A stretch of DNA of 64,000 nucleotides. Origin: a virus. Positions 14,970 to 64,000 of this stretch are shown one piece after another. A program made the translations under genes and the position numbers. Location: the IMG/VR virus record IMGVR_UViG_3300037119_005846, positions 32,031-96,030 of that record, one strand, 5' to 3'. Numbering within the stretch: the stretch's first letter is position 1; each line of letters begins with the position of its first letter. The notes beneath the pieces were generated by a model that was not told the DNA's origin, did no database searches, and worked only from the letters and a program-made list of their open reading frames with translations.

Positions 14970-17218
14970 ATACTCTCACCGCGGCCGTCGCGTACGACGT
15001 CACCGATTCCGCGGTCAAGGCGGTCGAGAGCGCGTCACGCGTCGCCGACGAGAAGACCGCGAGCACTGCCGCGCTAGCGCTGGCGATCGCGATGGACTCC
15101 GAGAACGAAGAGTCTGCGAGAGTGGCGGTCCTTAAAGATCCGCGCATCGCTCGCCTCAGTCTCGAGGCGGCGCAGGCGATCAACGACGCCGCCGAGCTCG
15201 CGGCCTGGCATCCGTCGCCGGATACGGATGCCGCGGTCAGCGGCAGTGTCAAAGATGCACTGCGAACACGTCGAACCGATGCCGAGCTCGCTGACACGAT
15301 CCGGAGCACGGTCGCTGACGCAGCAGCGGCTAGACGCTCGACGGTTGAGACCGATGATGAGACGCCCGACGCCGAGTCACGCCGTCACTGGAGTGATGCC
15401 GCCGGGCGCACTGCCGCGACACGGCTGGCAGCTGAGCGAGTCGTTGAGTCCATGCCGGTCGTGGAAGAAGCCGCCGGTGTCTCGCTTCACAAGCTCTGGC
15501 TGACTCAGGCAGACAGCCGCGTCCGGTCAAGTCATCGTCATCTCCAGGGTAAGACCGTCGAAGCTGACAAGCCGTTCTGGCGCGAGCTCGGCACCGACAA
15601 GCAGCTGCGCTTCCCGGGCGACCCAGAGGCGCCGCTGGATCAGACCGTGAACTGCCGGTGCTTCTTGTGGCTCGTCCCCGCGGACCAGGCGGCGGCCGCC
15701 GAGGAAACGTTCCAGATCAGTGACGATGACTACGCACTCGCTGCGTCTGTTAGTCGCCATCCGTCATGCGGGCTGCTACACGGAAATGCCGCGCTGATGA
15801 CAGTCGATGAATTCGACGGTGCGGCCGACATCCTGTACGGTCTGACAGCAGCGACCGAGCGCAAGTACGACGAGAGCAAGCACAAGCGCGACAAGGGCGG
15901 CAAGTTCTCGAAGCATGCCGGCCAGCAGGGCGGCACAGTTCACGAGCACAAGCGCTTCGATCGCAAGAAGTGGCTCGCCGAGGGTGGCTGGGACAGGGTC
16001 AGAGCCAAGTACGGTCTCGGCAAGGGCAAGGGCAAGGGCAAGGGCTCTGGCTCCGGCTCTGGCTCCGGCTCCGGCGGCGGAGACAGCGGCAGTGGAGACG
16101 ACGTCGACGCGGGCAAGGCCTTTGACGACGCCGCCGAGCGTGCTCGCAAGCGCTTCGAGACAATACAGAAGGCTCTTCAAGATCGCAGAGATGAGATCGA
16201 GAACACTCGAGCATCGAACGAGGCTGATAGAAGGCAGCTTCAGGCGCAGGCCGACCTCGAGCAGATCACGCGGCGCGAGGGCGAGGACGCCGCGATGAGG
16301 AAGCGGGAGCAGATGGTCCGAGACGTTGAGCAAGATCTGCGCAAGCACCAGAGTGACGTCGAGCGGTCGCAGAACTTGATCCTCGGCATGCGCCTCCGCG
16401 GCGAGCTGCCGGACGTGATCGAGGCCGAGCGTCAGAAGCTCCTCCGGCTCAAGGGTGAGACGACCGAGCTGGTCAATCTCAGTCGCTCGCTCGGCACTCC
16501 CGACCAGGTGCGCGACCTGCGCGATCGCGTCCGCTCGAGTCGCCGCATTCAGGACGTCGGCACGCGGAACAATCGCGCGGACCTGGATCGTCGGATCAGA
16601 CTCGCGCAGCGCCGGCAAGATCAGGGCCTGCGAAACACTGAGCGCTCCGCGTCGCAGGACTACCAGAATCAGGTACGTGACTTGCGCGCTCGAGCGAACG
16701 AGGCGAGGAAGCAGGCGGCGGAGGCGAAGAGGGGTCGCCGCGCCTCGCTGGTTGGCGGCGGACACGCGGACTCACCGCAGTCATGTGTCATCGCGCTCAT
16801 TCCGAAGGGCCACAAGGAGATCGAGTACGAGTCCGGCGAGAAGGCTCCGGCACATCTGACGCTGGCATACCTCAGTGACGGCAGCGACAACATCGAGGAT
16901 GACTTTGACGCGATCGACGCGGCCGTTGCGCGCTTCGCTGCGAGTCGTCAGCCGTTCACCGTGACTGTCGCCGGTCGAGCTAACCTTGGCGAAGATGGAG
17001 ATGACGTCATCATCGTTGAGGCGTCGGAGCTCGCTGAGGCGCGGGCCTGGGCGGAAAGTGAGCCGGGCATCAGCGAACGCTGCGCTGCCAGTGATCACCC
17101 GCACTGGATTCCGCACATGACTGGCGTCGACGGTGACTACGGCGACGAGGTCGAGTTCGATCGCATCGGCGCGTGGTACGGCGACGACAAGCGAGAGTAC
17201 CCGCTCGGCGGCGGGTAA
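14966..17218 (+). CDS. MuF-like minor head protein fused to an HPR-like tag, coiled coil and C-terminal 2H phosphoesterase
   Basis: K.W....D.RVR.SH, L.FPGDP, VNCRC (MuF), then YDESKHKRDKGGKF, then two HxT motifs (AHLTLAYL, PHMT). Confidence 0.85.
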   Translation: MNTLTAAVAYDVTDSAVKAVESASRVADEKTASTAALALAIAMDSENEESARVAVLKDPRIARLSLEAAQAINDAAELAAWHPSPDTDAAVSGSVKDALRTRRTDAELADTIRSTVADAAAARRSTVETDDETPDAESRRHWSDAAGRTAATRLAAERVVESMPVVEEAAGVSLHKLWLTQADSRVRSSHRHLQGKTVEADKPFWRELGTDKQLRFPGDPEAPLDQTVNCRCFLWLVPADQAAAAEETFQISDDDYALAASVSRHPSCGLLHGNAALMTVDEFDGAADILYGLTAATERKYDESKHKRDKGGKFSKHAGQQGGTVHEHKRFDRKKWLAEGGWDRVRAKYGLGKGKGKGKGSGSGSGSGSGGGDSGSGDDVDAGKAFDDAAERARKRFETIQKALQDRRDEIENTRASNEADRRQLQAQADLEQITRREGEDAAMRKREQMVRDVEQDLRKHQSDVERSQNLILGMRLRGELPDVIEAERQKLLRLKGETTELVNLSRSLGTPDQVRDLRDRVRSSRRIQDVGTRNNRADLDRRIRLAQRRQDQGLRNTERSASQDYQNQVRDLRARANEARKQAAEAKRGRRASLVGGGHADSPQSCVIALIPKGHKEIEYESGEKAPAHLTLAYLSDGSDNIEDDFDAIDAAVARFAASRQPFTVTVAGRANLGEDGDDVIIVEASELAEARAWAESEPGISERCAASDHPHWIPHMTGVDGDYGDEVEFDRIGAWYGDDKREYPLGGG

Positions 17219-18025: not shown

Positions 18026-18064
18026 GATAGGCAAGTCACATCAGACTCAGACAGGAGACAAGTC

Positions 18065-18406: not shown

Positions 18407-18419
18407 TAGCTTGGATGTC

Positions 18420-18761: not shown

Positions 18762-18773
18762 TACGGTTGGCCG

Positions 18774-20489
18774 GTGGCAGCACGACGGTTCTTCGATGAC
18801 TCGACTAATCTCGCGAGACAACCGTACGCGACACCGCGTCCGATCGTTGGCTCCGTCGAGCGACTGAATCTGAGCAAGGGCAGCGAGCGAGTCGAGAAGC
18901 GTGCCGTCAGCGCATGGCAGACGAGCGCGTGGCAGATGTTCGACGCCATCGGCGAAGTCCACTTCGCCTTCAGTCTGATCGCTCAGATCCTCAGTCGGGT
19001 CCGGATCTTCGCCGCGATCGTGCAGCATCAGGACGAGGCACCTGTCGACGTCAACGACTTTGTCAAGTCTCTTCAGGGCGACGCAGAAGTCGACGCTCCG
19101 AACACGCGCGAGGCCTGCGAAGAGGCGACCAAGATCCTTAACCAGCTCGTCCTCAACGCGCACGGCGGCATCAGCACGCTGCTCAGACTGATGGGGTTGA
19201 ACCTCTGCGTTCCCGGCGAGATGTACCTTCTCTACTTCAAGGATGAGTGGCACATCGCCAGCGTTGACGAGCTGACGCAGAGCGGCCAGACGCTGTACTA
19301 CCGGACGATGCGGACCTCTCCTAACACCGGCACCAAGGCAACAGCTGGTCGCGGCGAACCGCTGCCGAAGGACGCGTTCGTCGCGCGCATCTGGCGACCG
19401 CACCCACGGTACTCCGGCGAGCCGGACAGCTCGATGCTCGGAGTCCTTGATGACTGCGAACTGCTCGTCCTGCTCGAGCAGTCGATGAGGACGATCACGC
19501 GGAGCCGGATGAACGCCGGCGTGATGTTCATCCCCGAGGGACTCGCGTCGTTCGTTGCCGGCGACGAGGCAATGAGTGTCGAGGATGCGATCAGTCGAGC
19601 TAGCATCGAGAGTGTTGAGAACGAGACGGCTCAGGCGACCGTGGTGCCGCAGATTCTGAAGGGCCCGCCCGAGCTCGGCGACAAGATCAAGTGGATCCCG
19701 TATGGTCGGCAGATCGACCAGCAGTTCGTCGAACTCGTCGACAGGACGTTGCAACGCGTCCTTCAAGGGATCGACATTCCGAAGGAAGTCGTCTCCGGCC
19801 TCGCTGACGCGAAGTTCGCTAACGCGATCGTGATCACAGATGAGCTGTTCAAGGCGCATGTCGAGCCGCTCGTGCTCTTGTGTGTCGATGCACTGACGCA
19901 GGTCTATCTGAGGCCGCTGCTCAAGCGAGCACTCGGGATTGCTCCGGGCTCGGACGCGGACAGTGATGGCTCGAACATCGCTAACCGGATCATCATCTGG
20001 GCCGACACCGCCGGTATCGCTACGCGACCCGACAAGAGCCAGGCGGCGAACGACGGCTTCGACCGGAAGGTCCTCAGCGCCAAGGCGTGGCGTGACACGC
20101 GAGGGTTCACGGACTCCGACGCGCCAGAAGAAGAGGAGCTGCTGTTCCGCGTGGCGCTTCAGAGCGCGGTCATCCCGCCGGAGATCGTCGAGGCGGTGCT
20201 CAAGCGGATCGACCCGGCGTTCTTCGCAGCAGCTCGCGCGGCTAACTCGGAGATCCCACCGGAGATCGAGCAACTGCTCGAGCCGGTGCTCGGGCCACCA
20301 CCCGGCGAGGCACCATCAGCCGCCGGCGGGGCGGGCACTCGGCCGTCGTCTGGCACCACGGCGCCGCCGGTGAATCCAGCGCCGCCGGGGGCCGCGCCGC
20401 CGTCCGCGCTGACGACGCAGCTGAATGGCGCGGACATCAACACGAATGGCTCGAAGCCACCGCGAGCCGGCGAAGCGGCACTCCGCTAG
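18774..20489 (+). CDS. Portal protein
   Basis: WQ..AW..FD.IGEV, SR.R, RIWRPHP...EPDS, GIDIPKEV motifs typical of actinophage portals. Confidence 0.85.
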   Translation: MAARRFFDDSTNLARQPYATPRPIVGSVERLNLSKGSERVEKRAVSAWQTSAWQMFDAIGEVHFAFSLIAQILSRVRIFAAIVQHQDEAPVDVNDFVKSLQGDAEVDAPNTREACEEATKILNQLVLNAHGGISTLLRLMGLNLCVPGEMYLLYFKDEWHIASVDELTQSGQTLYYRTMRTSPNTGTKATAGRGEPLPKDAFVARIWRPHPRYSGEPDSSMLGVLDDCELLVLLEQSMRTITRSRMNAGVMFIPEGLASFVAGDEAMSVEDAISRASIESVENETAQATVVPQILKGPPELGDKIKWIPYGRQIDQQFVELVDRTLQRVLQGIDIPKEVVSGLADAKFANAIVITDELFKAHVEPLVLLCVDALTQVYLRPLLKRALGIAPGSDADSDGSNIANRIIIWADTAGIATRPDKSQAANDGFDRKVLSAKAWRDTRGFTDSDAPEEEELLFRVALQSAVIPPEIVEAVLKRIDPAFFAAARAANSEIPPEIEQLLEPVLGPPPGEAPSAAGGAGTRPSSGTTAPPVNPAPPGAAPPSALTTQLNGADINTNGSKPPRAGEAALR

Positions 20490-21155: not shown

Positions 21156-21169
21156 AAGGAACCAACCCA

Positions 21170-38317: not shown

Positions 38318-38436
38318 CGAGGTATAGTCTCGGCAGACAGCCAGACGCTAGACGCAGACGAGGACGACAGACCGACCATCTACTGATCGCACAGGTCGTC
38401 CATGTCCAATCATGACGAGAAAGAGAGTCAGACGCG

Positions 38437-39035: not shown

Positions 39036-39050
39036 GGGTGGTGACATAGC

Positions 39051-42000
39051 ATGGCTGCCGAGGCTATCGGCACGGCATTTATTGTCATCAGAGCAGTCAC
39101 GACTCGTCTCGCCAAGGACATCCAGGACGGCATCGAGAAGGGCGCCAAGGACGCTGACGTCGAGAGCTCCGGTCGCGACATGGGCGACCGGATGGGCACG
39201 GCCGGCGGTGAGTCGTTCGGGGACTCGTTCGACGAGACGTCATCCAAGAGAGTAGAAGAATCCGCTGACTCTCCTGAGATGAAGAAGTCTCAGAAGAAGT
39301 TCAGCGACAGGTTCTTCGGCCGCTGGGGCGCGCACTTCAGTCAGGGCGCTGATGATGTAAGTGACACGTTCCGTGAGCGACTCAGTGTTGGTATGGAGCG
39401 GTCGGCCACGGACATCGACGTCGATCGCGCTGCCGGCACGTTCGGTAGTGACCTCGGCGACGAGGTGGGCAACGACTTTGACGCGTCGTTCTCCCGCAAC
39501 ATGCAGCACAACTTCAAGAACCGGTCGAACGATGACACGTTCGGCACGGGCTTCAGTGGGTTCGCGCAACGTGCTGGCAAGAGCTTGGCCGACGGCGTGG
39601 GCACCACGTTCCTCGACAGCTTCGTTGGCTTTGGTGACACGGTCGCCGGCGCACTGAACAGCATCAAGATTCCGGGCGGCTCGATTGCCATTCTGGCTCA
39701 GCTCGCGATTCCTGCTCTTGGCGGGGCACTGCAGTCGATCGGTGCGCTCGCTGGCTCGGCCACGGCCGCGCTTGGCTTCCTCGGCACGGCGGCGGCAGGA
39801 GCAGGCATTGGGTTCCTTGGCCTGGGAGCGGCGATCGCGCCAGCGTTCCTTCTGATCAAGGGAGCGTTCGGCGTTGAGTCGGACGAGCTCGACGCGTTCA
39901 ACGGGCAGCTTGATGACTTCAAGGAGAAGTGGGAGTCAGTAGGCCTAGCAACGCAGGAGACTCTGCTTCCAGCGCTGTCAGCGTCACTCGAGATGTTCGA
40001 GGCGCTCATCCCGACCTTTGAAAGCTATGGCTCGGTGATCGGCCAGGTCGTCGGCGACATCGCCTTCGGCGCCGCAGGTATTCTGACGAGCACAGAGAGT
40101 CAGCTGAAGCTCAGCAGTATCCTCGCCAATGGTTCGCAAGTCATACGGACACTTGGTGACGCCGGGGTCGACTTGATCGCGCCAGTGCTGACGATCCTCG
40201 AGGCGGCGATGCCGATCGCTCAGCAGCTCGCGGATGCGATTCACCGCGTCGTTCAGAGCTTCGCCGAGTGGATCGACATGAAGTCGAAGTCGGGCGAGCT
40301 TACGGCTTTGTTCCAGAAGTGGTACGACCGCTTCAAGCTGATCATGTCGATCCTCGGCAACCTCGGCAGCGCGCTGGCTGATGTCTTCGGAATCGGCGCT
40401 GACTCTGCCGACGGCATGTTCAAGACTCTTGATGCAATCACCGAGAAGTGGGCTGAGTGGACGAACTCCGACGAGGGTCAAGCGAAGCTGACGACCTTCT
40501 TCGAGAACGCGAGAAAGATCTCGGGTGAGATCTTCGGAATTATTGGCGACATCGGCAAGCGCTTGTTTGGTGGGATGTTTGACCCAAAGGGCACGGATGG
40601 TCTTTTGGGCTTCTTCAAGACCATCCGCGAGGTATGGATTCCCGCACTGTTCGATTTCGGCGGCATGATCAAAGACCAGCTCGGTCCAGTTGTCGGTCAG
40701 GTCTTTGGCGTCATCACTGATCTGGTCAAGACTCTCACGGAAAACCCCGAGCTCGCAGGCGGCATTATAGGAGTCCTCGCCTCGAATTTCGTCTTGCTCG
40801 TCGCTGCGCTCAAGGGTCTCAACGCCGTGCTTAACACGGAGTTCGTCAAGAAGTGGGGCCCTCTGATCCTGAAGATCCTCCTGTTCGCGAAGATCGGCGC
40901 GACGCTCTGGCCTATCGTCAAGAAGATCATTAAGGTGTTCCAGGGCCTCGAAGCGGTTCTGGGTGCGATCTTCTCGCCGATCGGCCTGGTCGTCGCCGCG
41001 GTTGCTGCGCTCATCGCCGGCATCGTTCTTCTGTACTTCCACTTCCAGCCGTTCAGAGACTTCGTCGACCGCAACATCATCGACCCACTGCAGCGACTAT
41101 GGGACAGAATCGGTGGGTTCAGAGGGATCATTGACTTCTTCAAGGAGTTGCGTGAAGCCTTCAAGACAGGTGGGTTCGGTGGGGCGGTAGACTTCCTCAG
41201 CGAGCAGCTAGGAAATCTGCTCGATGACATCAAGGAGTTCTTCGCCGGCCTTCACATCGACTGGGGTGGGGTCTGGGACACTCTCTTCGAGGGCGCTGGA
41301 GACATCGGTGAGCAGCTCAGTGAGTGGCTGCAGACTGGTATTGACTGGCTCTCCAAGAACTTCCCCAAGATCGCCAGGACGATTGGGAAGATCGCCGGCA
41401 AGGTGCTTCTCGCTATCGTGGGGGTACTCACCCTGATCGTGCGAGCGATCGGGCCAGCGATGCTGACACTTCTCAAGAGTCTGCCGAGGATTCTCCAGAC
41501 TTTGGTCGAGGGAGCATTCCAGTTCCTGATTGGGATCCTGGAGGGTCTGGGTCTTCCCGAGGGAATTGTCAACTTCTTCGAGGGAGCCTTCGGCTTCATC
41601 ACCGATGCGTTCCAGATCATCACGGACTACGTCACTCGTCACATCGAGCGTGGCATCCGGATCGTCACAGACATCATCGGCTTCTTCAAGGCACTCTTCA
41701 GCGGCAACTTCGGCGAAGCCTTCGGCAAGATCGTCGACATTGTCAAGACAGTCATCGAAGATGTCATTGACCAGCTCTTGACGTTCGGCAAATTGATCTG
41801 GTTCGCACTCAAGAACAGTTTCAGCATACTGAAGGATGTGGGCTCACTCCTGCTGGGTTTCGGGCATGATCTCATCAACGGGCTGTGGCAAGGCATCCAG
41901 CGCATCTGGGACTCCACTATCCTGCCATTCTTTAAGAATCTTCCCGGCAACATTCTTAGCGCGATAGTGAGCGTCGGAAACTGGCTCCTGGAGACTGGCA

Positions 42001-52885: not shown

Positions 52886-54693
52886 TGACCGCCACCATCG
52901 CCCCGGCCAGCGCCGCCTCGTGCGATCTGAGCCCGTACCACGCCGACCGGATCGCCGTCTGGAGCGACTACCGCCTCAAGGACAGCGTCAAGCGCGTCCC
53001 CGGCGCCCGCTGGGACGGCGACAACCGATGCTGGACCGTGCCCCTGACATGGCCCAGCTGCCTCGCGCTGCGCGCCGAGCTCGGCCGCAGCCTGACCATC
53101 GGCGGCGGCCTCAACGCATGGGCCAAGGAGCAGCGCGAGGCCAAGGAAGCTGTCAAGGCCCTCTGCGGCGCGCACGTCCTCGACGAACTCGACGTCGGCG
53201 ACGCCGAGTGCTACGTCACGATGTACCCACACCAGCGCACCGGCGCGCGGGTGATCGCGGACACGCAGGCGTTCGCGCTGTTCGATGAGATGGGCGCCGG
53301 CAAGGGTCGGACGACTCTGGCTGGCCTCCGCCTCGCGAAGGAGGACGGCGAAGAAGTCTTCCCGGCGCTGATCGTGGCGCCGAAGTCGATGCTGATCACC
53401 TGGGCGCGTGACGAGATCCCGCGGTACTTCCCCGAGACGACCATCAGCGTGGTCGCTGGCACGCCGACCAAGGTGCGCGAGGCACTCAAGCCCGGCTTCG
53501 ACGTCTACGTCTGCTCGTACGACACGGCTCGCCGCTACTCGCGCCACGCCGGCTACCCAACTGTGACGCTGACGCCCGACGAGGCCAAGGACAAGGAGCT
53601 GAACGCTATTCCCTTCAAGTCCGTGGTCGCCGACGAGGCACAGCGGATCAAGAACCCGTCAGCCAAGCAGACTCGCGCGCTCTGGCAGCTCGGCCGTCAC
53701 GCCGACTACCGCGTGGCGCTGAGCGGCACGCCGATCCAGGACACGCCAGAGGACCTCTGGTCGATCCTCCATTTCATCTCGCCTGATGAGTATCCGGGCA
53801 AGACGGCCTTTGTCGACCGGTTCCTCCGTGTCAGCTACAACCCATGGGGCGGTCGCGAGATCAAGGGCCTCAATCCGCTGAACGAGATCGAGTTCCGCGC
53901 CAACGCGGAGACGCGGTTCCGCCGAGTGACCAAGGCGATGGCACTGACGTTCCTCCCGCCGAAGGTGTTCGAGACCCGCTGGGTCGAGCTGCCGCCGCGG
54001 ATGCGCAAGGCATACGAGTCGATGGTGGACGTCCTCGTCGCTGAGCTGGAGGGCGGCGACAAGCTCGTCGCTCAGTCCGTCCTCGAGCGGGCCGGCCGGT
54101 TGATCCAGATCGCCAACGCGTCTGGGACAGTTACTGACGTCGAGGAGACTGACGCCGACGGCGTGACCAAGATCAAGCACGTCTTCAAGATGGAGCTGCC
54201 GAGCCCGAAGATCGAGGCGTTCTTAGAAGACGTCGCCGAGGGTGACTTCGACGACCAGCAGGTGGTCGTGTTCTCGGACAGCCGCCAGCTGATCGACTTG
54301 CTCAGCGCGGAGATGACGCGGAAGAAGCTTCCTCACGTCACGGTCACTGGAGCGGTCACGGGCGACGACCGTCAGGAGGCAGTTGACGCGTTCCAGCGAG
54401 GGGACGTCCAATTCATCCTCATCACGCGCGCCGGCGGCGAAGGCCTTACCCTTACTGCCGCGTCGGTGATGGTCCGCCTGGTCAGAAGCTGGAGCTACAT
54501 CGTCCACACCCAGTCCGAGGATCGGGTGCACCGGATCGGCAGCGAGGTCCACGACTCGATTCTGTACGTGGATTACATCACAGATGATACTGTAGAGTTG
54601 TCTCAACTGGCACGTTTGAACAGCAAGCGTGAACGAGCAACAGAGGTACTTCGTGATGATGAGCTACTCGACATGCTGAAGCCGAAGAAATGA
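52885..54693 (+). CDS. SNF2-family helicase
   Basis: DEMGAGKG, DEAQ, LSGTP, AGGEGLTL, QSEDRVHRIG. Confidence 0.9.
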   Translation: MTATIAPASAASCDLSPYHADRIAVWSDYRLKDSVKRVPGARWDGDNRCWTVPLTWPSCLALRAELGRSLTIGGGLNAWAKEQREAKEAVKALCGAHVLDELDVGDAECYVTMYPHQRTGARVIADTQAFALFDEMGAGKGRTTLAGLRLAKEDGEEVFPALIVAPKSMLITWARDEIPRYFPETTISVVAGTPTKVREALKPGFDVYVCSYDTARRYSRHAGYPTVTLTPDEAKDKELNAIPFKSVVADEAQRIKNPSAKQTRALWQLGRHADYRVALSGTPIQDTPEDLWSILHFISPDEYPGKTAFVDRFLRVSYNPWGGREIKGLNPLNEIEFRANAETRFRRVTKAMALTFLPPKVFETRWVELPPRMRKAYESMVDVLVAELEGGDKLVAQSVLERAGRLIQIANASGTVTDVEETDADGVTKIKHVFKMELPSPKIEAFLEDVAEGDFDDQQVVVFSDSRQLIDLLSAEMTRKKLPHVTVTGAVTGDDRQEAVDAFQRGDVQFILITRAGGEGLTLTAASVMVRLVRSWSYIVHTQSEDRVHRIGSEVHDSILYVDYITDDTVELSQLARLNSKRERATEVLRDDELLDMLKPKK

Positions 54694-55304
54694 CGCAGCT
54701 ACATCACATTCACTACGTTCATGTAGCACTCGAAGCATATGGACCACTACCTCATCCATGCCACTTCTGCGAGCTTCCAGTCGTCCACTTGACGACGCGG
54801 CACCCACTAGGTGGTGTTGTTCATCATCTTGACGCGAACCGGGCTAATGACGATCCGTCGAATCTCGTGTTCGCGCACACCGCCTGTCACTCACGTCATC
54901 ATCAGACCGGGCGCAAATTGACCAAGGCGGCGAAAGCCAAGATCGGCGAGGCAGTCCGTGAGTGGAACAGCAAGCTCGAGAATCAGGAACGAAAGTCTCG
55001 TGGCATGAAGACAGCGCACGCAGACGGTAAGTTCACCACGATGTATGAGAAGGTTCGTCTGCGGTGGGCGGATCCAGAGATGCGACAGGCACAGTCAGAC
55101 CGACTTCGAATCTACGAGCCACGGGAGCTACTCACGAAGGAGCAGCGCGCTGAGATCTACCGAGACAATGGTGCACGCTACAGCGCGCATCTTCGATCTG
55201 GCATGTATGACGTTGACTGTCCGAACGGCTGCGGCAAGCGATGCGCTCCTGGTCCGATGGCCATACACGTCCGCGGCGGCCGGTGTCCTCTGAAGGCGAA
55301 ATGA
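54690..55304 (+). CDS. HNH endonuclease with NUMOD3-like helices
   Basis: C..C...VHHLD.NR.N....NL...H..CH. Confidence 0.8.
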   Translation: MTQLHHIHYVHVALEAYGPLPHPCHFCELPVVHLTTRHPLGGVVHHLDANRANDDPSNLVFAHTACHSRHHQTGRKLTKAAKAKIGEAVREWNSKLENQERKSRGMKTAHADGKFTTMYEKVRLRWADPEMRQAQSDRLRIYEPRELLTKEQRAEIYRDNGARYSAHLRSGMYDVDCPNGCGKRCAPGPMAIHVRGGRCPLKAK

Positions 55305-55327: not shown

Positions 55328-58300
55328 ATGACTGACGTTGACGTCAATGCCGTCTCCGAACTGTACGCTACTTGGGAAAGAGAGCTAGCCCAGCTCGACC
55401 ACGAGCCTGATCCCGCGCTGATCGCGTCACTGGAGAGCCAGGCGCTCGACATGGGCGTCGACCTGTTCGACGTCTTCACGACGCTGACCGCGGCGTTCGA
55501 TCCGAGCCTCCATCCGCGCGGCAAGGACGGCAAGTTCATCGAGGTCGGCGGACTGATCCGCTTGTTCAATTTCTCGATCCAGGGCAAAGACGGCAAGCAG
55601 CACGACTTCAGCGGCCGTCGCGGCAAGGTCCTCGGCATCGACAAGGACCCGAAGAGCGACAAGCTGCCGCCGAACATCCGCGTCGGGCTGTACGACACGG
55701 ATGACATGAGCGGCCCGCCGAAGGCTGTCGTCACTGTCAAGCCGAACCACATCGAGAAGGCACCGGAGAAGGGTCGTCTGCCCAACGCGGAGTCGTATAA
55801 GGCGCCTGACGTCAAGATGCCGGGCGGCACGAACGATGTCATTCCGATGACGCCGACACCGCCGAAGTCCGAGAACCAGAAGCTGAACGACTCCGGCATG
55901 AAGTGGAACAGCAACCTTCAGCTCTACGAAACGCCGAATGGGACGAGCGGGTCGCAGATGAGCATCGACAATGTTGACAACAAGCCTCGCTACAGTGTGT
56001 TCCCGCCCGGTATATCTCGCTGGTCGACAGATCAGAGCGGCGTGCGACGGTACGACAACATCGATGACGCGTTAGCGAGCATCAACGAGCCGGCTACACC
56101 AGGTGCGAGTGCGCCGCCCCTGACGCCAGATGACCTCAACACGGTACCGGCGCCCGCGAGCTTCACACCGTCATCGAACATCACCAATGACTTCGTCGAG
56201 TACCCGGTCGGCTCCGGTGACGTGTACATGCTGACGCCGTTCAACGGCGGCGAGCGCTACCAGCTGACGCCGCAGAATCCCACGGCCGGCGAGCCGATCC
56301 AGAACCCGTACCTTGACGAGCTTAATCCGGACGAAGTCGCGAAGATCGACACTAGCGGTAGCGGTGGTGGCGGCGTTCCCAAGAACACGCCACCCTCTGG
56401 CTCGCAGTACGAGGAAGCTTCAGTACGCGCCGAGGGACTTCGCAACACCGGCATCTTCGATGACTGGTACGGCCGCGAGGCCGAGCTCGCCGACGGCAAG
56501 CTGTGGCTGTCGAAGGAGAAGTTCAACGCCGACGTCGACAAGGGCAAGTATGGCTCGGTCTCGGACGGTCAGCGCGAGGCACTTCGCCAGGCTTTGATGA
56601 ACCAGGCGGCTCAGGTCAATGCCGTGAATGAGGCCGACCTGAGCACTCAGAGCGCCGACTTCATGAACACTCAGCGCGCCAAGGCCGTGCCGTTCGACCA
56701 GGCCAAGAAGAACTCGATCGTGATGATCAACGAGAACGGCGTCGAGACTCCGTTCAAGGTTGAGGGCAAGCGCAACGGCAAGCTGTACGGCCATACGATG
56801 ACTCCTGATACCGCCGGCGAGGTGTATTACGACGACGGCCTGTCACCGAACGAGGCGTGGGGCGCGAGCGACATCGGCTTCGGTAGCGATGAAGAGACAG
56901 CCGACGACCTCAAGGATTACGGTCCGTACGCATTCAAGGATGGTGGCGGAAACGTTCTTCCGCCGATATCGCCCGAGATGCAAGCTAAGGCCGACAAGTT
57001 GATGGGTCCCAAGCCTGCCGCTGCGCCGAGCGCACCTGGTGGCGGCGGCGGCGGCCGTGAATGGCCGCCTCTTCCGTCCAGCCCCGACGATGACGATGCT
57101 ATCGCTTTGATGGACGAGGCGATTGATGCATTTATCACCGATTGGGCGCGTGAGCACAACGGTGAAGAAGTCGACAATATGGGCGCATCTGATATCGAGG
57201 ATGCGTTATTTGACGGTGCTATCGAATCCGGGCTCGACGCTGAGGCTCTTGACAGCATGACGGCATGGGACCCGCATGAGTACTACGACCGCTGGCGAAA
57301 CATCACAAATGACGGCACAGAAGTTCCTGGTGAAGGTCATGTCCCCGTAAGTGAACGTGAGCCTCTTGCGCCTGTACCTTCTGCTCCCGTCGGCGTGTCG
57401 ACGCCGTCCGCCAAGAGCGGCCCGGCGCAGCCGGGCGGCGGCAAGAGAACACCTGATGAGGTGCAGAAGATCGCAGACTTCATCGGAGCATCACCTGCCA
57501 CGACCGCGGATCTGCAAGAGTTCTACGGCACGAACGACCCTCAACGTCGTGCACAGCTTGGCAATAAGCTCAGCAAGCAAGTTGGCCCAGGAGCATGGGC
57601 CGACATCAACGATCCTGAGTATGTCGACAGCGTCGTTCTCAAGAACAAGCCCATCAAGTTCGTCGGGACGCCAGATGCCGCATCTGATCCCGTCGAGTCG
57701 CGCGGCGGCTTCGACCTCTGGGACAACGGCGCTGAAGGCTGGGCCGTCTACAGCTCTGACGGCGACCTCGTCGTCGCCGACACGACCGAGGCCAACGCTC
57801 GCTCCGTGTTCAACACGTCCGCGGGCAAGGATGGTGGCGGCACGCCGGCGTACGCACCGCTCGACAAGGCTCGTGTCGACGCGATCATTGATCACATCGG
57901 TGCTAAGGGAAAGATCGCGGCAGATCTCAGAGAGTTCTTCAGTACGACTGATCCGAAGCGCAAGGCGGCACTCGGTACCAGCCTCGACCAGCGAGTCGGT
58001 CCGGGAATCTGGAGCGATATCAATGATCCGGACTACGTCGACAACACCATCTTGAAAGGCAAGGGCACATCATTCGCCGACGTCGGCAATGCCGTCGCGA
58101 AGGGCGGGACCGGCGGAACGTTCAAGCCCGAGAACTACAACAAGATGAAGGCCGGCGACGCGGACACGTATCTGGCCGGCCTTACTCCCGAGAACCGCGC
58201 GGCGGCGATGGACTTCACCAAGAAGGACGTCCCGGCTCGCGCGAAGAAGTTCGACGACGCGAGCCTGCGAGCGACGTATGAAGCCGCGACCGATCCCGAC

Positions 58301-58945
58301 GTCAAGCGCGACCTGAAGATCGAGCTCGCGAGACGTGGCCTGCTTACCGAGGTGGACACGGTCGGGGGAGGTGAGGGCGCGGCACCGGCGGCGGAGGCGC
58401 CGGCCGTCCCTTTATCTGAGGCGCCGGCCGCGCCGGCGCCAGCGGCTCCTGCAGCCCCCGCGATGCGCAGCAGGGCGGCGATCCAGACCGAGCTCGACGA
58501 CGTCACGGCTCAGCTCGACAAGAAGTGGGGCGATCAGTTCGGCAACATGGGTCCAGGCGCGCAGAACATGCGCAACAATCTCATGAACAGGCGCAAGGCA
58601 CTCTACGCCGAACGCGACGCTGTCGACGCCAAGGAGACCGACGACCTTCGAACGTCACTGAAGACAGTGCAGCCGCACACCTATATCAAGCCACAGCACG
58701 ACTACGTTCGTCAGCAGTGGGAGATGTACTTCGCCGAGGAAGACAGCATGTACTCGCCCACTGACACGACGATCACGGCGCTTCTGCGTGACGCGATCAA
58801 GAAGCATCCGAACGATCCATACGTGACGATCGGTCCGCCGTCCGAGGCCGAGGTCCAGTTCCCGATGGCCGACGCTCGCATCCTCGCGTACACCAACCCG
58901 ACGATGGAGTACAGCCCACCGCCGGGACTGCCGGCGATAGTGTGA
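55328..58945 (+). CDS. Large multidomain protein with N-terminal HPR tag (putative head cargo)
   Basis: LTAAFDPSLHPRGKDGKFIE and an internal duplicated domain. Start moved to the ATG 8 nt after GGTAGTAT. Confidence 0.8.
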   Translation: MTDVDVNAVSELYATWERELAQLDHEPDPALIASLESQALDMGVDLFDVFTTLTAAFDPSLHPRGKDGKFIEVGGLIRLFNFSIQGKDGKQHDFSGRRGKVLGIDKDPKSDKLPPNIRVGLYDTDDMSGPPKAVVTVKPNHIEKAPEKGRLPNAESYKAPDVKMPGGTNDVIPMTPTPPKSENQKLNDSGMKWNSNLQLYETPNGTSGSQMSIDNVDNKPRYSVFPPGISRWSTDQSGVRRYDNIDDALASINEPATPGASAPPLTPDDLNTVPAPASFTPSSNITNDFVEYPVGSGDVYMLTPFNGGERYQLTPQNPTAGEPIQNPYLDELNPDEVAKIDTSGSGGGGVPKNTPPSGSQYEEASVRAEGLRNTGIFDDWYGREAELADGKLWLSKEKFNADVDKGKYGSVSDGQREALRQALMNQAAQVNAVNEADLSTQSADFMNTQRAKAVPFDQAKKNSIVMINENGVETPFKVEGKRNGKLYGHTMTPDTAGEVYYDDGLSPNEAWGASDIGFGSDEETADDLKDYGPYAFKDGGGNVLPPISPEMQAKADKLMGPKPAAAPSAPGGGGGGREWPPLPSSPDDDDAIALMDEAIDAFITDWAREHNGEEVDNMGASDIEDALFDGAIESGLDAEALDSMTAWDPHEYYDRWRNITNDGTEVPGEGHVPVSEREPLAPVPSAPVGVSTPSAKSGPAQPGGGKRTPDEVQKIADFIGASPATTADLQEFYGTNDPQRRAQLGNKLSKQVGPGAWADINDPEYVDSVVLKNKPIKFVGTPDAASDPVESRGGFDLWDNGAEGWAVYSSDGDLVVADTTEANARSVFNTSAGKDGGGTPAYAPLDKARVDAIIDHIGAKGKIAADLREFFSTTDPKRKAALGTSLDQRVGPGIWSDINDPDYVDNTILKGKGTSFADVGNAVAKGGTGGTFKPENYNKMKAGDADTYLAGLTPENRAAAMDFTKKDVPARAKKFDDASLRATYEAATDPDVKRDLKIELARRGLLTEVDTVGGGEGAAPAAEAPAVPLSEAPAAPAPAAPAAPAMRSRAAIQTELDDVTAQLDKKWGDQFGNMGPGAQNMRNNLMNRRKALYAERDAVDAKETDDLRTSLKTVQPHTYIKPQHDYVRQQWEMYFAEEDSMYSPTDTTITALLRDAIKKHPNDPYVTIGPPSEAEVQFPMADARILAYTNPTMEYSPPPGLPAIV

Positions 58946-58949
58946 GGTC

Positions 58950-60413
58950 ATGAGCGACAGCTTCGTCGTAGTACGACGCACTCGAGAGTACAAGCCGCTG
59001 GTTGCGGCCTTCAATCCGGACCTACATCCTCGCGGGCACGACGGCAAGTTCATCGAGAAGTTCGGTTTCATCAAGATCGTTGGTGGCTACGACAAGGGTA
59101 ACCATGGCCAGGTTGTAGACATCACTCCGGACAAGAGCAACCCCGGTCGGCCGGTCATCCACTACCGCCAGACTGATAATCGCGGCAACCAGATCGGCCC
59201 TCGTCTCGGAGCTACGCCGGATCAAGTCGAGTCGATTGACGAGAAGGCGCGTCTCAGCGGTCCACCCAGCGCGCGCCGTACTGAGATGGACGTAGACTTA
59301 GGGCCGGACACGAACCAGTCACCGTATGGGCAGCTGAACTTCGAAGCACCAGGGCAGGTGCCGAGATTCCCGGTGCCGCAGCCGCAGACGACGAGTCATG
59401 ACGCCGAGATTCCCGGCATTGGTAGCGTCGACGAGTACCTAGCCGCGAACCCGCAGCAGCCTGATGAGCCATTCTTCGAGTGGCAGTCTAGACTATGCGA
59501 TGGCCTTCCGCAGAAGTCGAGGCACGCGCTGACGTTCGAGACGAGAGAGCGCTACCCCAAGGTCGACTACATCGCCGAGGGCTCCGCGCGCTGGCGGGCC
59601 GAGCACGATCTTCCCGAGCCGAAAGTCGACCTGACCGAGGTGCCGGCGCCGCTGGAGAAGGCTGACGCCGTCGCTCGAGCGTTCGAAACCGCGGCTGATC
59701 AGAGCGACGACCCGCGAGTGCAGGCGGCATTCGCCGAGTTCAAGCGGCAGAACGACGAGATGTGGGACTTCGCGACTAGGCCCGAGTCAGAGGGCGGCCT
59801 CGGGATCAAGGTCGACTTCTGGACCAACCTGGACGAGACACAGTTCGGCGTAGGTCCGTATGCGGACGCGACCGCGCAGGCTGAAGACTTGCGCGCCAAC
59901 CATCACATCTACCTCGAGCACGGACTCGGCGGCGATCACGGCGCGACGATGACCGACGACGAGTACGACAGGTTCCGCGCGGTTCACGATATCTTCGGCC
60001 ATGCCGGCATCGGCGGCGGGTTCGACCGTCACGGCGAGTACCAGGCGTACCTCGCTCACTCGTCGATGTACGAGGGCGACGGCCGTCGTGCGATGGCGAG
60101 CGAGTACCACGGCGTCAACACCGCGGTCTGGGCGGGAGCGCCCGGCAGCCCGGGCACGGGCAAGTCGATCTTGCTTCCGGAGGAGCTGATCCCGAACCCG
60201 TTCGGGCCGACCGGCGACATCATCGCGGCGTCCGCGGTCCAGGTCCCGACGCCGGCGCAGCAGAAGGCGCTCGGCATCGACGCCGCTCACGCGGAATCGC
60301 TGGTCTACCTCGCGATGCAAGCGAACATCGAGCCGCCGTTCGCTCAGTGGTATGACGACCTGCCGCGACACCACTCGACGCCGCCAGAGGGAACAGAGCC
60401 CTACGCGGCCTAG
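58950..60413 (+). CDS. HPR-tag protein with an FRAVHDxxGH metallo-domain
   Basis: LVAAFNPDLHPRGHDGKFIE, FRAVHDIFGH...GE..A...H..MY. Confidence 0.8.
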   Translation: MSDSFVVVRRTREYKPLVAAFNPDLHPRGHDGKFIEKFGFIKIVGGYDKGNHGQVVDITPDKSNPGRPVIHYRQTDNRGNQIGPRLGATPDQVESIDEKARLSGPPSARRTEMDVDLGPDTNQSPYGQLNFEAPGQVPRFPVPQPQTTSHDAEIPGIGSVDEYLAANPQQPDEPFFEWQSRLCDGLPQKSRHALTFETRERYPKVDYIAEGSARWRAEHDLPEPKVDLTEVPAPLEKADAVARAFETAADQSDDPRVQAAFAEFKRQNDEMWDFATRPESEGGLGIKVDFWTNLDETQFGVGPYADATAQAEDLRANHHIYLEHGLGGDHGATMTDDEYDRFRAVHDIFGHAGIGGGFDRHGEYQAYLAHSSMYEGDGRRAMASEYHGVNTAVWAGAPGSPGTGKSILLPEELIPNPFGPTGDIIAASAVQVPTPAQQKALGIDAAHAESLVYLAMQANIEPPFAQWYDDLPRHHSTPPEGTEPYAA

Positions 60414-60429
60414 GCGGTAGTATCCGACT

Positions 60430-63400
60430 GTGATCACGGCAGACGATGACGTCCTCCTTGACATCGACGTCGTAGAGCTGTCACCAGCGGGCCTGCGTCA
60501 GCTTGAGGCAGCCCCCGTGAGCGTCCAGACTGCGTGGTACCAGAGGCGTCGTCGGGAGGCTCTAGCAGCCGCGGGGCTGGTCGGCGCATTCAATCCACTC
60601 CAGCCTCGAGGCAAGGATGGCAAGTGGATCGAGAAGTGGGGCTGGGTCCGCTGGCTGGAGAATGGCCAGTGGAAGCGCGGCCGTGTCACAGACATCGACA
60701 AGGACGGTAACTCAACAGTCACGGAGACGGCGACTAAGCAGCAGCGCAGCTTCGATCGGTTCGAGGCGCGCCGTCGCCTGTTCACGACGGCGAAGACGAA
60801 GGCGACGCTCGAGCTGCCGAGCCCCGGCGCGCACAAGGGCGCCGACGGCTTCACGCAGATCGGCGGGCAGGGCGGCTCCAACCCTGGCGCGCTGTACCAG
60901 GTGACCGACCAGGACGCGGTCAAGGGCAACCTCGCGCTGACGCCAAGCATGATGCGCGAGTCACTCAAGCTCAACAATGTCTCGCCGCACGACGTCAGCT
61001 TCAACGAGACGGACAGCGTCACAAGTGTTCAGTCGAAGATCGGTCAGCCGTCGATCTTCATTGACAAGTCGAACAACAAGGCGTATCTGAATCTCTCGGG
61101 CGGCGTCTTGTGGGATCTCGACACCGGCGACATAGCCGAGGTCGAGGAAGTGTTCGGACTGCCCGACACGCCGCGTCGCCACGACGTCCTCGGTCAGCTC
61201 GAGGTCTACGACCCCGGCGACGTCACCACGCAGACGAAGATCCTTCAGACGGCGCGGTCACTTGGCGTCGGCAGGCCGACAGTCGACACGAAGTTCTACG
61301 TCAAGACGTCGAAGTCGCCGGAGCACGCCCGCAACGAGGCGCTGGCCAACGACCTGTACGAGCTCGCCGGTGTCTCTGTCCCGAACGTCGCCGTCGGCAA
61401 GGACGGGAACACGATCTCGAGCGAGATCGTCACGGGCGACAGCGTCCAGCCGCTCTCGAACGTTCTCAGCGACCCTGACATCATGAAGCGAGTCCGCGAG
61501 GACTTCGTCATCGATGCGTGGCTCGCTAACTGGGACGTCGCCGGCCTCGGCCTCGACAACATGGTGATCGTCGACGGCCAGCCGTATCGGATCGACGCCG
61601 GCGGTGCGCTTCTGTATCGCGCTCAGGGCAACCCGAAGGGTAACAAGTTCGGGAATGAAGTCACCGAGCTCGACTCGCTGACGAATCCGAGCGTCAACCC
61701 GCAGGCGGCGAAAGTGTTCGGCAAGGTCACACCTGGTGAGATGGCCGATGGCGCTCAGCGCCTCGCGGCGATCAGCCCGCAGCAGATCATCAACGCGGTC
61801 GAGGCTCAGAACCTCGACAAGAGCCTCGCTGACAAGCTGATCGCGCGGCGCAAGTACATCCTCGACAAGACCGGCATCATCGAGCCCAAGGTCGACGACA
61901 TCCTTGAAGAGTTGCTCGACGAGGAGCCGCCGTCGACGCCGGTATTGCCGATTACGCCCGGTAACACTCTTGACGTCGGCACCGGCACTACGGTCTACGA
62001 CCCCAAGACGAAGTCACTCGTTCCTGGTACGGCACTGTCAGTCAGCGCGCAGAATGATCATGACGCCTTCATCACGAGTCACGTCGGGCCGCTCAAGGGA
62101 GATGGCATCGTCGGCGGCTACATAAACGGCGACAAGCTCGTTGTCTCGACTGACGGCAGCCTCTGGGAGGTCACGGGAGTAGAGCCAACATCGGGTACCG
62201 GCGGCTCGTACAATCTTAACATTCGTCACCTCGGCACGGGCGAGGTAAGCACGATGAACGTTTACGACGACACGACGTACTACGCGACGACTGATACGGA
62301 TGGCTCACTCGCAGCTGACTACGCTCCGGTCTATGATGACTTCCAGACGTATGCCGTGAACTCGTACACGAGCGTCAGCGACATGCTCAATGACGGATGG
62401 CGTCCTGAGCTGAAGACCGCGCCGACTCACAGTGGCGTGACGCTCAAGCCGGGTGACTGGATCATTCGCGGTTCAATCGCGTCTACCAAGCCGGGGGCGT
62501 ACAGGGTCGACAGTGTCGCGGACAACGGCTATGTGTACGCGACGAGCATGAGTGGTGAGAAGCTCGCGACCAAGCCCGGCTTCGACTGGCGTCAGGCCGG
62601 TCCCGGAACGATGGTGAATCAGACGCTGGACGCAATCAAGGCTCGCAACGACGCGGCGGCGCACGCTGACATTCTAGCTGGATATAGCGATGGAATAAAG
62701 ACCGCGTACACGCCGAGCGACCAGACGCTAGCGAAACTGAACGCGTCGACGCCCACGCCGCCGAATCCTGCCGTGACGCCGGTAGTCGTAGACCCGGACA
62801 CGCTCGAGACTCACTTCGACCCGGAGACCGGGATCAACGAGAGCCTGAAGGTGCTCGGCGATCCCGTCCCTGTAACTGAACTCAAGAACCAGAACCCGGA
62901 CGACTGGGTCGGCAAGTGGGTCTACGTCCGCAAGTCGATCGAGCCAAAAGCCGACTGGAAGGGCTACAAGGCGTCGGGCGATCAGGGGATGTTCAAGATC
63001 GCGGGTGACGACTGGTCCGGCGGTTACGGTGTCTGGGCTTACGACTCGACTGGACTGAAGCAGAAGATCGACCCGTATGGCAACGAGGTCATGTTGATTG
63101 ACGGTGAGATTCCGCCGGTCGTCAACCTCCAGTTCAAGAAGGATCACACGATCGCGGTCAACGGTCATCGCGTTGGCTCGTGGAGCGGCAGCGGTGATCA
63201 CTGGTATCACGACTACAAGGTTCAGCTCGATCCTGACTACACGGTCAGTGGCCAGGTGTTCCGCGCGAAGGTCGGCCAGAAGGCGGCGATGCGCACGATC
63301 ATCGTGCCAATGCTCATGCCGCACAGCGTCGGCGGCAGCAAGGACAAGTCGACCGCCTCGATCGAGCTCGAGCACGCGGTCCGCGCCGACGTCGAGTTCG

Positions 63401-64000
63401 GCGCTGGCAGTGCCGAGGTCACCGAAACGGGCACGGCCGACACATTGCTCGACGGCTCCAAGGCTACGCTCGGCATGTGGGTCATCTCCAAGACCGACGG
63501 CAAGGTCGGCAAGATCTCGACGATCGAGAAGGGGACCGGCTACGTCAAGGTGACGATGGACGACGGCACGATCAAGGGTCGTGCCGCGTCGACTCTCAGT
63601 GCAGCAGCCGATCCGTCGTCTGGCGCGATCCCGCCCTACTCGCCGCTGTACAAGGACGTCAAGCTCGCCGACGGCAGTGGCGCGTTCCCGTCTCAGGGCG
63701 TGCTCGTCGGCGACAGCAGCGCGACGATCGTGATGATCAAGCCGGATGGCAACGTCCGCATCGTTGACTCGTCGGGCAAGTTCACCTGGACGAAGGCGAC
63801 GAAGCTGTCGCCGGCCAAGACGTTCTCGGTGAAGACTCAGGCGGACGTCCATAACAGTCCGGCTGTCGGCATCGCGCTGAGCACTGACGCATGGAAGACA
63901 GTCGGCAAGCCGGGCAAGGTCCAGTACGCCGCGCCCGGCGACGTCACTATCCCGCAGACGTCCAATGCGGTCGAGATCTATCGCGAGTTCGCGCACACTC
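60430..64000 (+). CDS. Very large HPR-tag protein with a HipA/PI3K-like kinase domain (3'-truncated by the window)
   Basis: Translated by hand: LVGAFNPLQPRGKDGKWIE, GGQGGSNPG, FYVK, NE.LA..LY, DAWLANWD..G...DN, RIDAGG. I saw no stop before the window end, and the ORF is absent from the track. Confidence 0.85.
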   Translation, partial: MITADDDVLLDIDVVELSPAGLRQLEAAPVSVQTAWYQRRRREALAAAGLVGAFNPLQPRGKDGKWIEKWGWVRWLENGQWKRGRVTDIDKDGNSTVTETATKQQRSFDRFEARRRLFTTAKTKATLELPSPGAHKGADGFTQIGGQGGSNPGALYQVTDQDAVKGNLALTPSMMRESLKLNNVSPHDVSFNETDSVTSVQSKIGQPSIFIDKSNNKAYLNLSGGVLWDLDTGDIAEVEEVFGLPDTPRRHDVLGQLEVYDPGDVTTQTKILQTARSLGVGRPTVDTKFYVKTSKSPEHARNEALANDLYELAGVSVPNVAVGKDGNTISSEIVTGDSVQPLSNVLSDPDIMKRVREDFVIDAWLANWDVAGLGLDNMVIVDGQPYRIDAGGALLYRAQGNPKGNKFGNEVTELDSLTNPSVNPQAAKVFGKVTPGEMADGAQRLAAISPQQIINAVEAQNLDKSLADKLIARRKYILDKTGIIEPKVDDILEELLDEEPPSTPVLPITPGNTLDVGTGTTVYDPKTKSLVPGTALSVSAQNDHDAFITSHVGPLKGDGIVGGYINGDKLVVSTDGSLWEVTGVEPTSGTGGSYNLNIRHLGTGEVSTMNVYDDTTYYATTDTDGSLAADYAPVYDDFQTYAVNSYTSVSDMLNDGWRPELKTAPTHSGVTLKPGDWIIRGSIASTKPGAYRVDSVADNGYVYATSMSGEKLATKPGFDWRQAGPGTMVNQTLDAIKARNDAAAHADILAGYSDGIKTAYTPSDQTLAKLNASTPTPPNPAVTPVVVDPDTLETHFDPETGINESLKVLGDPVPVTELKNQNPDDWVGKWVYVRKSIEPKADWKGYKASGDQGMFKIAGDDWSGGYGVWAYDSTGLKQKIDPYGNEVMLIDGEIPPVVNLQFKKDHTIAVNGHRVGSWSGSGDHWYHDYKVQLDPDYTVSGQVFRAKVGQKAAMRTIIVPMLMPHSVGGSKDKSTASIELEHAVRADVEFGAGSAEVTETGTADTLLDGSKATLGMWVISKTDGKVGKISTIEKGTGYVKVTMDDGTIKGRAASTLSAAADPSSGAIPPYSPLYKDVKLADGSGAFPSQGVLVGDSSATIVMIKPDGNVRIVDSSGKFTWTKATKLSPAKTFSVKTQADVHNSPAVGIALSTDAWKTVGKPGKVQYAAPGDVTIPQTSNAVEIYREFAHT

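Follow-up and report, generated by a model that had tools for sequence, protein, structure and literature searches.

The stretch of DNA analyzed here, called the window, comprises 64,000 nucleotides (nt) and corresponds to positions 32031-96030 of a 96,030-bp IMG/VR contig (record IMGVR_UViG_3300037119_005846) from an uncultured actinobacterial phage. Three consecutive large genes at its 3' end, designated g1, g2, and g3, encode near their N-termini copies of the same protein module, called the tag, and this module and the proteins that carry it are the subject of the analysis. Coordinates are those of the window and features are on the + strand, unless genome positions (C1) or other records are named. 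Nearly all genes of the phage are on this strand, and the G+C content of the genome is about 63%. The last 126 nt of the contig (window 63875-64000) are an exact repeat of genome C1:4-129, and the assembly is therefore circular; IMG/VR lists the contig as linear.

Gene g1 (55328..58945) encodes 1205 amino acids (aa) counted from M30. The longest open reading frame (ORF) starts at 55241, but M30, at window position 55328, is most likely the true start, because it follows the stop of the HNH gene at 55304 and gives the same length as the 1205-aa database copy, P0013. That HNH endonuclease match, directly 5' of g1 (window 54690-55304, PF13392), is weak (19.7 bits, below the cut-off); it overlaps the start of the longest ORF and therefore supports the M30 start. 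The g1 protein consists, in order, of a helical leader, the tag, a disordered linker, and a payload. The leader (55328..55474) has the pattern W..EL...PDP.L[IV]ASLE..A..G and was matched by a leader hidden Markov model (HMM) with E = 6e-21. Tag copy 1 (55475..55795), located by HMM and alignment, has TLTAAFDPSLHPRGKDGKFIE, continues into a barrel and ends in EKGRL. The payload contains two repeats of about 68 aa (57458..58093; residues ~740-815 and ~876-951 in long-ORF numbering).

Gene g2 (58950..60413) encodes 487 aa, which form a short leader, the tag, a Pro-rich linker, and a payload from phrog_3170 in which the motifs HDxxGH and FDRHGE are conserved. Its tag (copy 2, 58986..59264) has PLVAAFNPDLHPRGHDGKFIE, continues into the barrel, ends in EKARL, and is the closest of the copies to the family consensus. 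The payload motifs FRAVHDIFGH and FDRHGE (59973..60038), a putative metal site, are kept in homologues. Gene g3 (60430..64000 for the first 1190 of 2079 aa) continues past the circular junction, across the 126-nt overlap to genome position 2798, and is therefore not ended at the window edge; the full protein is P0016 in the database. It is composed of a leader, the tag, a kinase-like domain, and a long conserved C-terminal region. Its tag (copy 3, 60565..60849), also located by HMM and alignment, has GLVGAFNPLQPRGKDGKWIE, continues into the barrel, and ends in TKATL. A disordered Pro/Gly-rich linker directly follows each tag. There is one payload in g2 and one, with a repeat, in g1; in g3 the kinase-like domain is accompanied by more than 1500 aa of further sequence.

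The initial annotation had reported a common motif in these three genes and a fourth, diverged copy in a MuF head protein. The translations placed all four motif sites where they had been reported (LTAA at 55484, LVAA at 58998, LVGA at 60577, and LTAA at 15842), and the common N-terminal element of g1, g2, and g3 was found to extend over about 95 aligned aa, with 37-49% identity and pairwise BLASTP E values of 5e-13, 7e-11, and 3e-12. When an HMM of the three tags was run against the six-frame translation of the whole 96-kb genome, only these three tags were found (E = 1e-37 to 1e-46). A relaxed regular expression, [HQK][PK]R[GD]..G[KRQ][FW], matched exactly four sites in the six frames, namely the three tags and the MuF site; by our own reckoning, about 0.01 would be expected by chance. 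At the DNA level the tags are 74-83% similar, and this similarity is restricted to a motif core of about 60 nt; the tags are therefore old paralogues and not the products of recent duplication. The sequences beyond the tags are unrelated, as had been claimed: with the tags masked, the best E value among g1, g2, and g3 was 0.18.

The MuF head protein (P0004, 14966..17218) is 750 aa long and contains, in order, a MuF domain (aa 162-233), the remnant tag motif, a Gly/Ser/Lys-rich linker with a coiled coil, and a C-terminal 2H phosphoesterase (aa 625-719). The identification of the 2H domain held, with a score of 32.4 bits against PF13563 (cut-off 27) and the motifs HLT at 630 and HMT at 717. The fourth copy of the tag stood in part. 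The short motif LTAATERKYDESKHKRDKGGKF (15842..15907) is present and fits the relaxed regular expression, but it is the motif alone, with no barrel, and was missed by the domain HMM. In the related locus L006 the homologous MuF protein has a complete tag at the position of the remnant. The spacing between LTAA and the motif in the remnant matches that in the tag of gp73 of Gordonia phage Sixama, which is described below. Protein P0028 (750 aa, tag at residue 308) was suspected from its length to be an orthologue of the MuF protein, but it proved unrelated.

A profile search of 1.84 billion cluster representatives recovered a family of tag modules, with 291 clusters (50% identity) at E <= 1e-3 and 108 clusters at E <= 1e-10; the proteins are 106-3149 aa long. 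Of the 167 proteins retrieved, 133 have their first tag starting no later than residue 80, and 33 contain two to four copies, always between other segments. The consensus consists of an Ala-rich flank, FNPDLHPRGxDGKFIE, a beta segment (RGxVxxIxPDPxxPGxPxIxV...VKP), and the end APE-KARL; the residues H, P, R, G, D, G, F, and I and the C-terminal K-A are conserved at 87-100% among family tags. In 104 of 201 tags the flank pattern [LIVM][TVLSA]A[AG] stands 5-9 residues ahead of the motif, compared with 2.6% in the background, and L[TV]AA is four-fold enriched in the studied proteome. In many stand-alone family members, g1 included, a conserved helical leader of about 45 aa precedes the tag; in the studied genome the leader HMM matched only g1, and g2 and g3 have no such leader. 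Clustering of whole proteins by payload merged them into one single-linkage component, because leaders and domains are common to the proteins. A pattern scan of 185,579 species genomes yielded no relative; given how narrow the patterns were, the result argues weakly for absence from prophages.

The g2 tag was modelled with AlphaFold2 from an alignment of 32 rows, and the mean predicted local distance difference test score (pLDDT) was 84, and about 94 over residues 21-100. The module is predicted to be a five-stranded small barrel of the KOW/SH3 kind, with the HPRG-DGKF(I)E motif packed against the barrel. The closest fold matches were the KOW domains of Spt5/NusG, ribosomal L24, L26, and S4e, together with Tudor domains, with Z-scores of about 7-9 (7.5-8.9 for the best KOW matches); at the top were 5oho_B (Z = 8.9, 65 residues aligned, root-mean-square deviation 3.5) and 2xhc_A (Z = 8.0). 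Judged from the model, the likeness to KOW and Tudor domains is a generic small-barrel resemblance. The Pfam KOW model (PF00467) matched only one of the three tags, with E = 0.13 and 12.6 bits (cut-off 22.3). The tag shares the five-stranded barrel with KOW, Tudor, and SH3-like domains, but it is not a member of them at the sequence level, and only this family has its N-terminal extension with HPRG-DGKF and its KARL end. The median isoelectric point (pI) of the tags is 9.2 and the median net charge is +3, and one tag in four is neutral or acidic. The module is not covered by any model in Pfam, NCBIfam, or PHROG, and with a generic barrel fold only, the tag does not match a characterised domain of unrelated function. 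By its sequence, the tag module is a distinct family.

The payloads were examined individually, and the initial annotation was borne out as regards a repeat, a conserved HDxxGH motif, a kinase-like fold, and a 2H domain. The repeated domain of g1 consists of two 68-aa repeats that are 53% identical (E = 1e-25). In the g2 payload, both HDxxGH and FDRHGE are kept in six homologues, namely P0005, P0094, P0156, P0019, P0087, and gp110 of Mycobacterium phage Gizmo, a Bxz1-like mycobacteriophage in which gp110 sits among head genes. As for a zincin assignment of the g2 payload, no match was found to Pfam, NCBIfam, or Protein Data Bank (PDB) sequences, and its Atlas neighbours were unnamed viral clusters. 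Residues 280-530 of g3, which are conserved in more than 30 clusters of tagged giants of 2000-2800 aa, modelled as an atypical protein-kinase-like domain (61267..62019). The top 50 structural matches of this region were all kinases, including CtkA (Z = 11.4), PI4KII-alpha (10.1), CotH (10.1), and HipA (9.8), and Foldseek returned HipT and CtkA at E = 2e-4 for a model whose pLDDT was only 64. The region contains the motifs YVK, NE..AN, DAWLANWD...DN, and RIDAGG, and in our alignment of it (A3) K13, E24, D83...N88, D97-N98, and D110-G112-G113 are invariant. As modelled, with a bilobal kinase fold and counterparts of the beta3 Lys, the alphaC Glu, the catalytic D...N, and the metal-binding D(F)G, the g3 payload belongs to the protein-kinase-like superfamily, in the branch of CtkA, PI4K type II, CotH, and HipA. 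The Pfam models PI3_PI4_kinase and HipA_C had no match in the genome, and g3 had no Pfam kinase match at the sequence level; the kinase assignment therefore rests on the fold. Queries of PDB sequences with g2, with each half of g3, and with a profile of the kinase region gave nothing meaningful.

The genomic context of the tag was surveyed in relatives with two IMG/VR scans, which gave 49 loci from 44 contigs; tags were located with a family HMM of 122 sequences, and head genes by iterative searches seeded from the studied genome. The data showed that the motif is linked to head genes across phages. In 34 of the 44 contigs a tagged ORF either neighbours or is fused to a head gene, be it portal, protease, MuF, or capsid. 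By position, the tagged ORF immediately follows the portal gene in 24 contigs and the protease gene in 9, immediately precedes the protease gene in 3, and is fused to MuF in 4. Any head gene lies within 10 kb of a tagged ORF in 37 of 44. In the complete genomes G003 and G005 the order is portal, tagged giant, protease, and capsid, and in the Streptomyces record CP109288, a 126-kb 'plasmid', the portal gene is followed by a giant of 4897 aa with the motif at its N-terminus. The partners of the tag vary. Precomputed Pfam domains showed Zeta_toxin/AAA_33 in 17 of 39 tagged hits, and the relatives include a protein of 1668 aa with MuF, a half-tag, and an ADP-ribosyltransferase (ART), and one of 2740 aa with a peptidoglycan-binding domain, 2H, the tag, and a g3-like kinase. 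These two (L009 and L007, respectively) and P0005 are clearly multi-domain; the chain of P0005 runs leader, tag, Zeta domain, tag, and g2 payload. Relative G002 has five copies of the HPRG plus barrel module. The protease match of this genome (L016, G002:C1:32155-34583) contains a single TGA codon in frame and, inside it, the start of an ORF of 1002 aa that carries two tags; on the sequence, this arrangement of protease and cargo could be read-through, a frameshift, or overlapping genes.

The tag is also present in cultured phages. The tblastn search of 50,697 cultured phage records with the g2 tag gave nothing at E <= 0.01, which marks the limit of its sensitivity, but the family HMM and a BFVD fold hit identified the tag in gp73 of Gordonia phage Sixama (residues 22-104, E = 7e-18). 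After the tag, gp73 continues into a kinase-like domain of the g3 type (36% identity, E = 3e-34). The gene order in Sixama is TerL, MuF, portal gp72, gp73, ART toxin gp75, gp77 (a homologue of the protein Y320 described below), protease, and capsid. Searching with Sixama's own tag added six further Gordonia phages, Mareelih, Forza, BlueNGold, Boopy, Phendrix, and GodonK, and in all of these phages the protein is annotated 'hypothetical protein'. Thus, gp73 resembles g3 in combining the tag with a g3-type kinase-like domain and lies directly after the portal gene, but it differs in length (774 aa versus 2079 aa) and in its longer spacing between LTAA and the motif, and one tagged gene was detected in the scanned head region of Sixama. 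In Saccharomonospora phage PIS 136, the portal gene is followed by a MuF-protease fusion, and no tag is present.

In the studied genome, the genes for TerL, portal, MuF, protease, and capsid were all identified. Upstream of g1 lie replication genes, namely DNA polymerase A (PolA), an SNF2 helicase, and the HNH endonuclease. Downstream of g3, past the junction, are X281 (281 aa), Y320 (320 aa), the head maturation protease, the major capsid protein, and a head-tail adaptor. Because the protease and capsid genes lie downstream of g3, the trio stands at the entrance of the head-assembly block. Between g1 and g2 there are 4 nt and between g2 and g3 there are 16 nt, and the 281-aa gene that follows overlaps g3; such tight spacing leaves no small immunity ORFs. 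No tyrosine integrase (PF00589) was found in the genome at E <= 1. The portal gene (18774..20489; phrog_776, E = 1e-84) and the MuF gene are 35-40 kb from the trio and adjoin a tail fibre gene and an endolysin.

The initial annotation had interpreted the tag as targeting cargo to the head for injection with the genome, and this interpretation is supported in part. Two conditions that would have refuted it, a motif not associated with head genes across phages and a tag matching a characterised domain of unrelated function, were checked, and neither spoke against it. With modest confidence, we favour the reading that the products of g1, g2, and g3 are head-packaged cargo and that the module is their common element for incorporation, processing, or both. 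Within this reading, the module may itself be the address, or it may mark the boundaries of modules for the prohead protease, a version that several of the observations given below favour. The sequences show that the copies of the module are homologous and predicted to share a fold, that they stand at the starts of modules with varied partners, and that tagged genes are tightly linked to those for portal, protease, MuF, and capsid. No small immunity-like ORFs between the genes and no integrase were found, which agrees with this reading. From these observations we infer a location in the virion, injection, a binding partner in the head, and cleavage. The arrangement is best read as cargo of the polyvalent type, which in relatives is strung on one giant behind MuF or portal and here is split into separate genes. 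The tagged proteins would be made late, together with the products of the head genes, and the module would act as a shared handle through which the procapsid takes up or retains unrelated enzymes close to the portal/MuF vertex; it would probably also mark a site at which the prohead protease trims the leader or separates modules. At infection, the cargo would exit with the DNA and then act on the host, and the kit would comprise a kinase-like enzyme, an HDxxGH enzyme, a repeat protein, and, on MuF, a 2H phosphoesterase.

Several points weigh against this reading. Synteny with head genes indicates co-regulation and shared history rather than physical packaging. The tagged cluster is far from the portal gene both here and in relative G001, and in 7 of the 44 contigs no head gene was detected within reach. 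The fold matches of the barrel are middling and generic, and the module is mildly basic in its median pI, so that binding of DNA or RNA is equally compatible with the data. The idea of cleavage at LTAA is speculative and draws on an Ala-rich motif of four residues. Finally, a module fused behind MuF or other domains should not have to serve as an address, and its covalent fusion to anchored domains therefore favours a role at junctions or in processing. A bolder form of the favoured reading is that the HPRG-barrel is a universal, transferable loading handle, which docks cargo at the portal/MuF vertex and is clipped at [LV][TV]AA by the prohead protease; we offer this tentatively, as a possibility and not as the expected outcome. 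If it is true, a large lineage of actinobacterial phages has a genetically encoded address-plus-cleavage code for a changeable kit of enzymes, including a kinase like HipA and CtkA, and the module would be a folded-domain counterpart, not yet described, of the capsid-targeting sequence of T4.

The strongest alternative, which we nevertheless consider rather unlikely, is that the module is no address but a junction or processing element, either a boundary for the prohead protease at the [LV][TV]AA flank or the KARL end, or a folding insulator. Incorporation into the head would then come from MuF, the portal, or the helical leader, and the conserved leader of g1-type proteins could be the true targeting propeptide. 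The repetition of the tag two to four times within single polypeptides, always between modules, agrees with this, as do its position directly behind MuF domains that are already anchored in the head and the tagged ORFs directly after (9 contigs) or before (3 contigs) the protease gene. The flank [LIVM][TVLSA]A[AG] is 20-fold enriched upstream of the motif, and a flank-like motif is present in the protease itself and retained, in the form L/I/M-[TV]-A-A, in the capsid protein of all five genomes aligned. However, HPRG-DGKF and the barrel core, where conservation is highest, make up a folded domain, which is more than cleavage by a protease would require. HPRG is absent from the capsid protein, and g2 and g3 retain the tag though they have no leader of the g1 type.

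In another alternative, the module would be a KOW-like binder of nucleic acid that tethers cargo to the packaged genome, so that the DNA pulls it out on leaving, or that directs enzymes to the DNA, RNA, or ribosomes of the host once inside. The best fold matches, to the KOW domains of Spt5/NusG, L24, L26, and S4e, point in this direction, together with the weak Pfam KOW match and the basic median pI and charge. The MuF protein of phage SPP1, gp7, binds DNA. However, these fold matches are within the range reached by unrelated small barrels, the tags that are neutral or acidic make up a quarter of the family, and no sequence relation to KOW families exceeds the threshold, and such a function appears improbable.

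We consider it very improbable that g1, g2, and g3 are polymorphic toxins of the MuF type for competition between bacteria, with the tag as a trafficking or pre-toxin domain and with paired immunity genes. The pool of payloads, which includes Zeta-toxin kinases, ART, and the HipA-like kinase fold, does overlap with toxin domains. However, g1, g2, and g3 have no MuF match in Pfam or PHROGs, the gaps of 4 and 16 nt and the overlap of g3 with the next gene leave no small immunity ORFs, no tyrosine integrase was found, the narrow pattern scan of the 185,579 species genomes gave no relative, and the family is found in large, apparently lytic phages. Receptor-binding proteins typically have a common N-terminal adaptor and variable C-termini, and the tagged proteins are very large, but that the module is an N-terminal anchor joining interchangeable tail fibres or spikes to the baseplate is scarcely credible, as the neighbours of the trio are replication genes upstream and the protease and capsid genes downstream, not tail genes, relatives have tagged genes after the portal gene and the module fused to MuF, and the payloads (kinase-like, Zeta kinase, ART, 2H) are enzymes of cytoplasmic type.

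Head-packaged modular effectors, as assumed in the favoured reading, are a published concept and not new in kind (PMC5512222; PMC5576092). Effectors fused to MuF or portal, with 2H, Zeta-like kinase, and ART domains, have been predicted to be packaged and injected, and polyvalent proteins of the phage type carry 2-15 effector or enzymatic domains per polypeptide (Iyer, Burroughs, Anand, de Souza, and Aravind, 2017; PMC5512222). The tagged proteins resemble these in being large, in lying among the head genes of portal-terminase phages with a late-gene context, in drawing on the same conflict pool of MuF, 2H, Zeta, ART, and kinase domains, and in that the relatives of g3 are multi-domain fusions. 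They differ in that the cargo here is three separate genes with no MuF, each headed by the HPRG plus KOW-like module, and the main text of the polyvalent-protein paper does not mention this module. MuF proteins of temperate phages carry polymorphic C-terminal toxins with downstream immunity genes (Jamet et al., 2017; PMC5576092). The conserved head-associated N-terminus with swappable C-terminal enzymes is found in the MuF-2H protein of the window, but g1, g2, and g3 have neither MuF nor downstream immunity ORFs, and the phage has no detected integrase; no junction motif is described in the MuF-toxin paper. The internal proteins of T4 have a capsid-targeting sequence of about 10 residues that is cleaved off, and the ejection proteins of SPN3US and phiKZ have propeptides (PMC3012670; PMC7411985). 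As a proposed functional model, these systems are similar in that a common N-terminal element on unrelated, head-packed, ejected proteins is removed by the prohead protease. Unlike the T4 sequence, the module described here is predicted to be a folded domain of about 100 aa, has no sequence relation to it, and occurs internally too. Neither the papers on polyvalent proteins and MuF toxins nor later ones citing the polyvalent proteins were found to describe the motif or module; the module appears to be undescribed, although silence of the literature is not proof. This analysis adds a predicted fold for the module, numbers for its linkage to head genes, a leader and a flank that are conserved, a kinase fold in the conserved giant protein, and the cultured Gordonia carriers.

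The packing of enzymes into heads and their injection have been predicted since 2017, but the recognition of cargo is known in very few phages (T4, P1, and phiKZ-like phages). The tag family, with hundreds of sequence clusters, is a concrete and conserved candidate for this recognition step. Seven cultured, freely available Gordonia phages carry the tag, so the idea is directly testable. If real, a transferable packaging handle would also be of use in filling phage capsids with proteins. The payloads, which include the HipA/CtkA-like kinase, the HDxxGH enzyme, Zeta-type kinases, 2H, and ART, are candidate enzymes for host takeover or anti-defence.

Several further features were observed in the head genes and around them. 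The major capsid protein (616 aa, C1:7672-9522) has a helical, scaffold-like N-terminal domain and an acidic Pro-rich linker of variable length, and its L/I/M-[TV]-A-A tetrapeptide, near residue 262, precedes G(W/C)C(A/S)P and is kept in the five genomes aligned; this tetrapeptide, which resembles the tag flank, is a candidate maturation cleavage site. The Y320 protein (C1:3633-4595) ends in a Cys-containing motif, YW..G.G..KIRWG..G...RC..QL, which also occurs between the MuF and protease domains of PIS_022 of Saccharomonospora phage PIS 136 and in Sixama gp77 (phrog_6439), and which looks like a conserved element of the head module. The protein that follows the capsid (302 aa, C1:9581-10489; phrog_792, 'major tail protein') has the stretch ALVAAGLNPVRP, whose loose likeness to the tag start LVAAFNP..PRG may be due to chance. 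Most relatives retain the order TerL, MuF, portal, cargo, protease, and capsid, whereas in the studied genome the protease and capsid genes are 35-40 kb from the portal gene, and G001 has the same rearranged order. In window 10552-20489 the order is also unusual: tail fibre, endolysin, MuF, and portal, followed by Ku. The Ku-like DNA-end-binding protein lies just 3' of the portal gene (window 21065-21979; phrog_4873, E = 1e-12), and within window 36950-44297 a DNA methyltransferase directly precedes the tape-measure gene.

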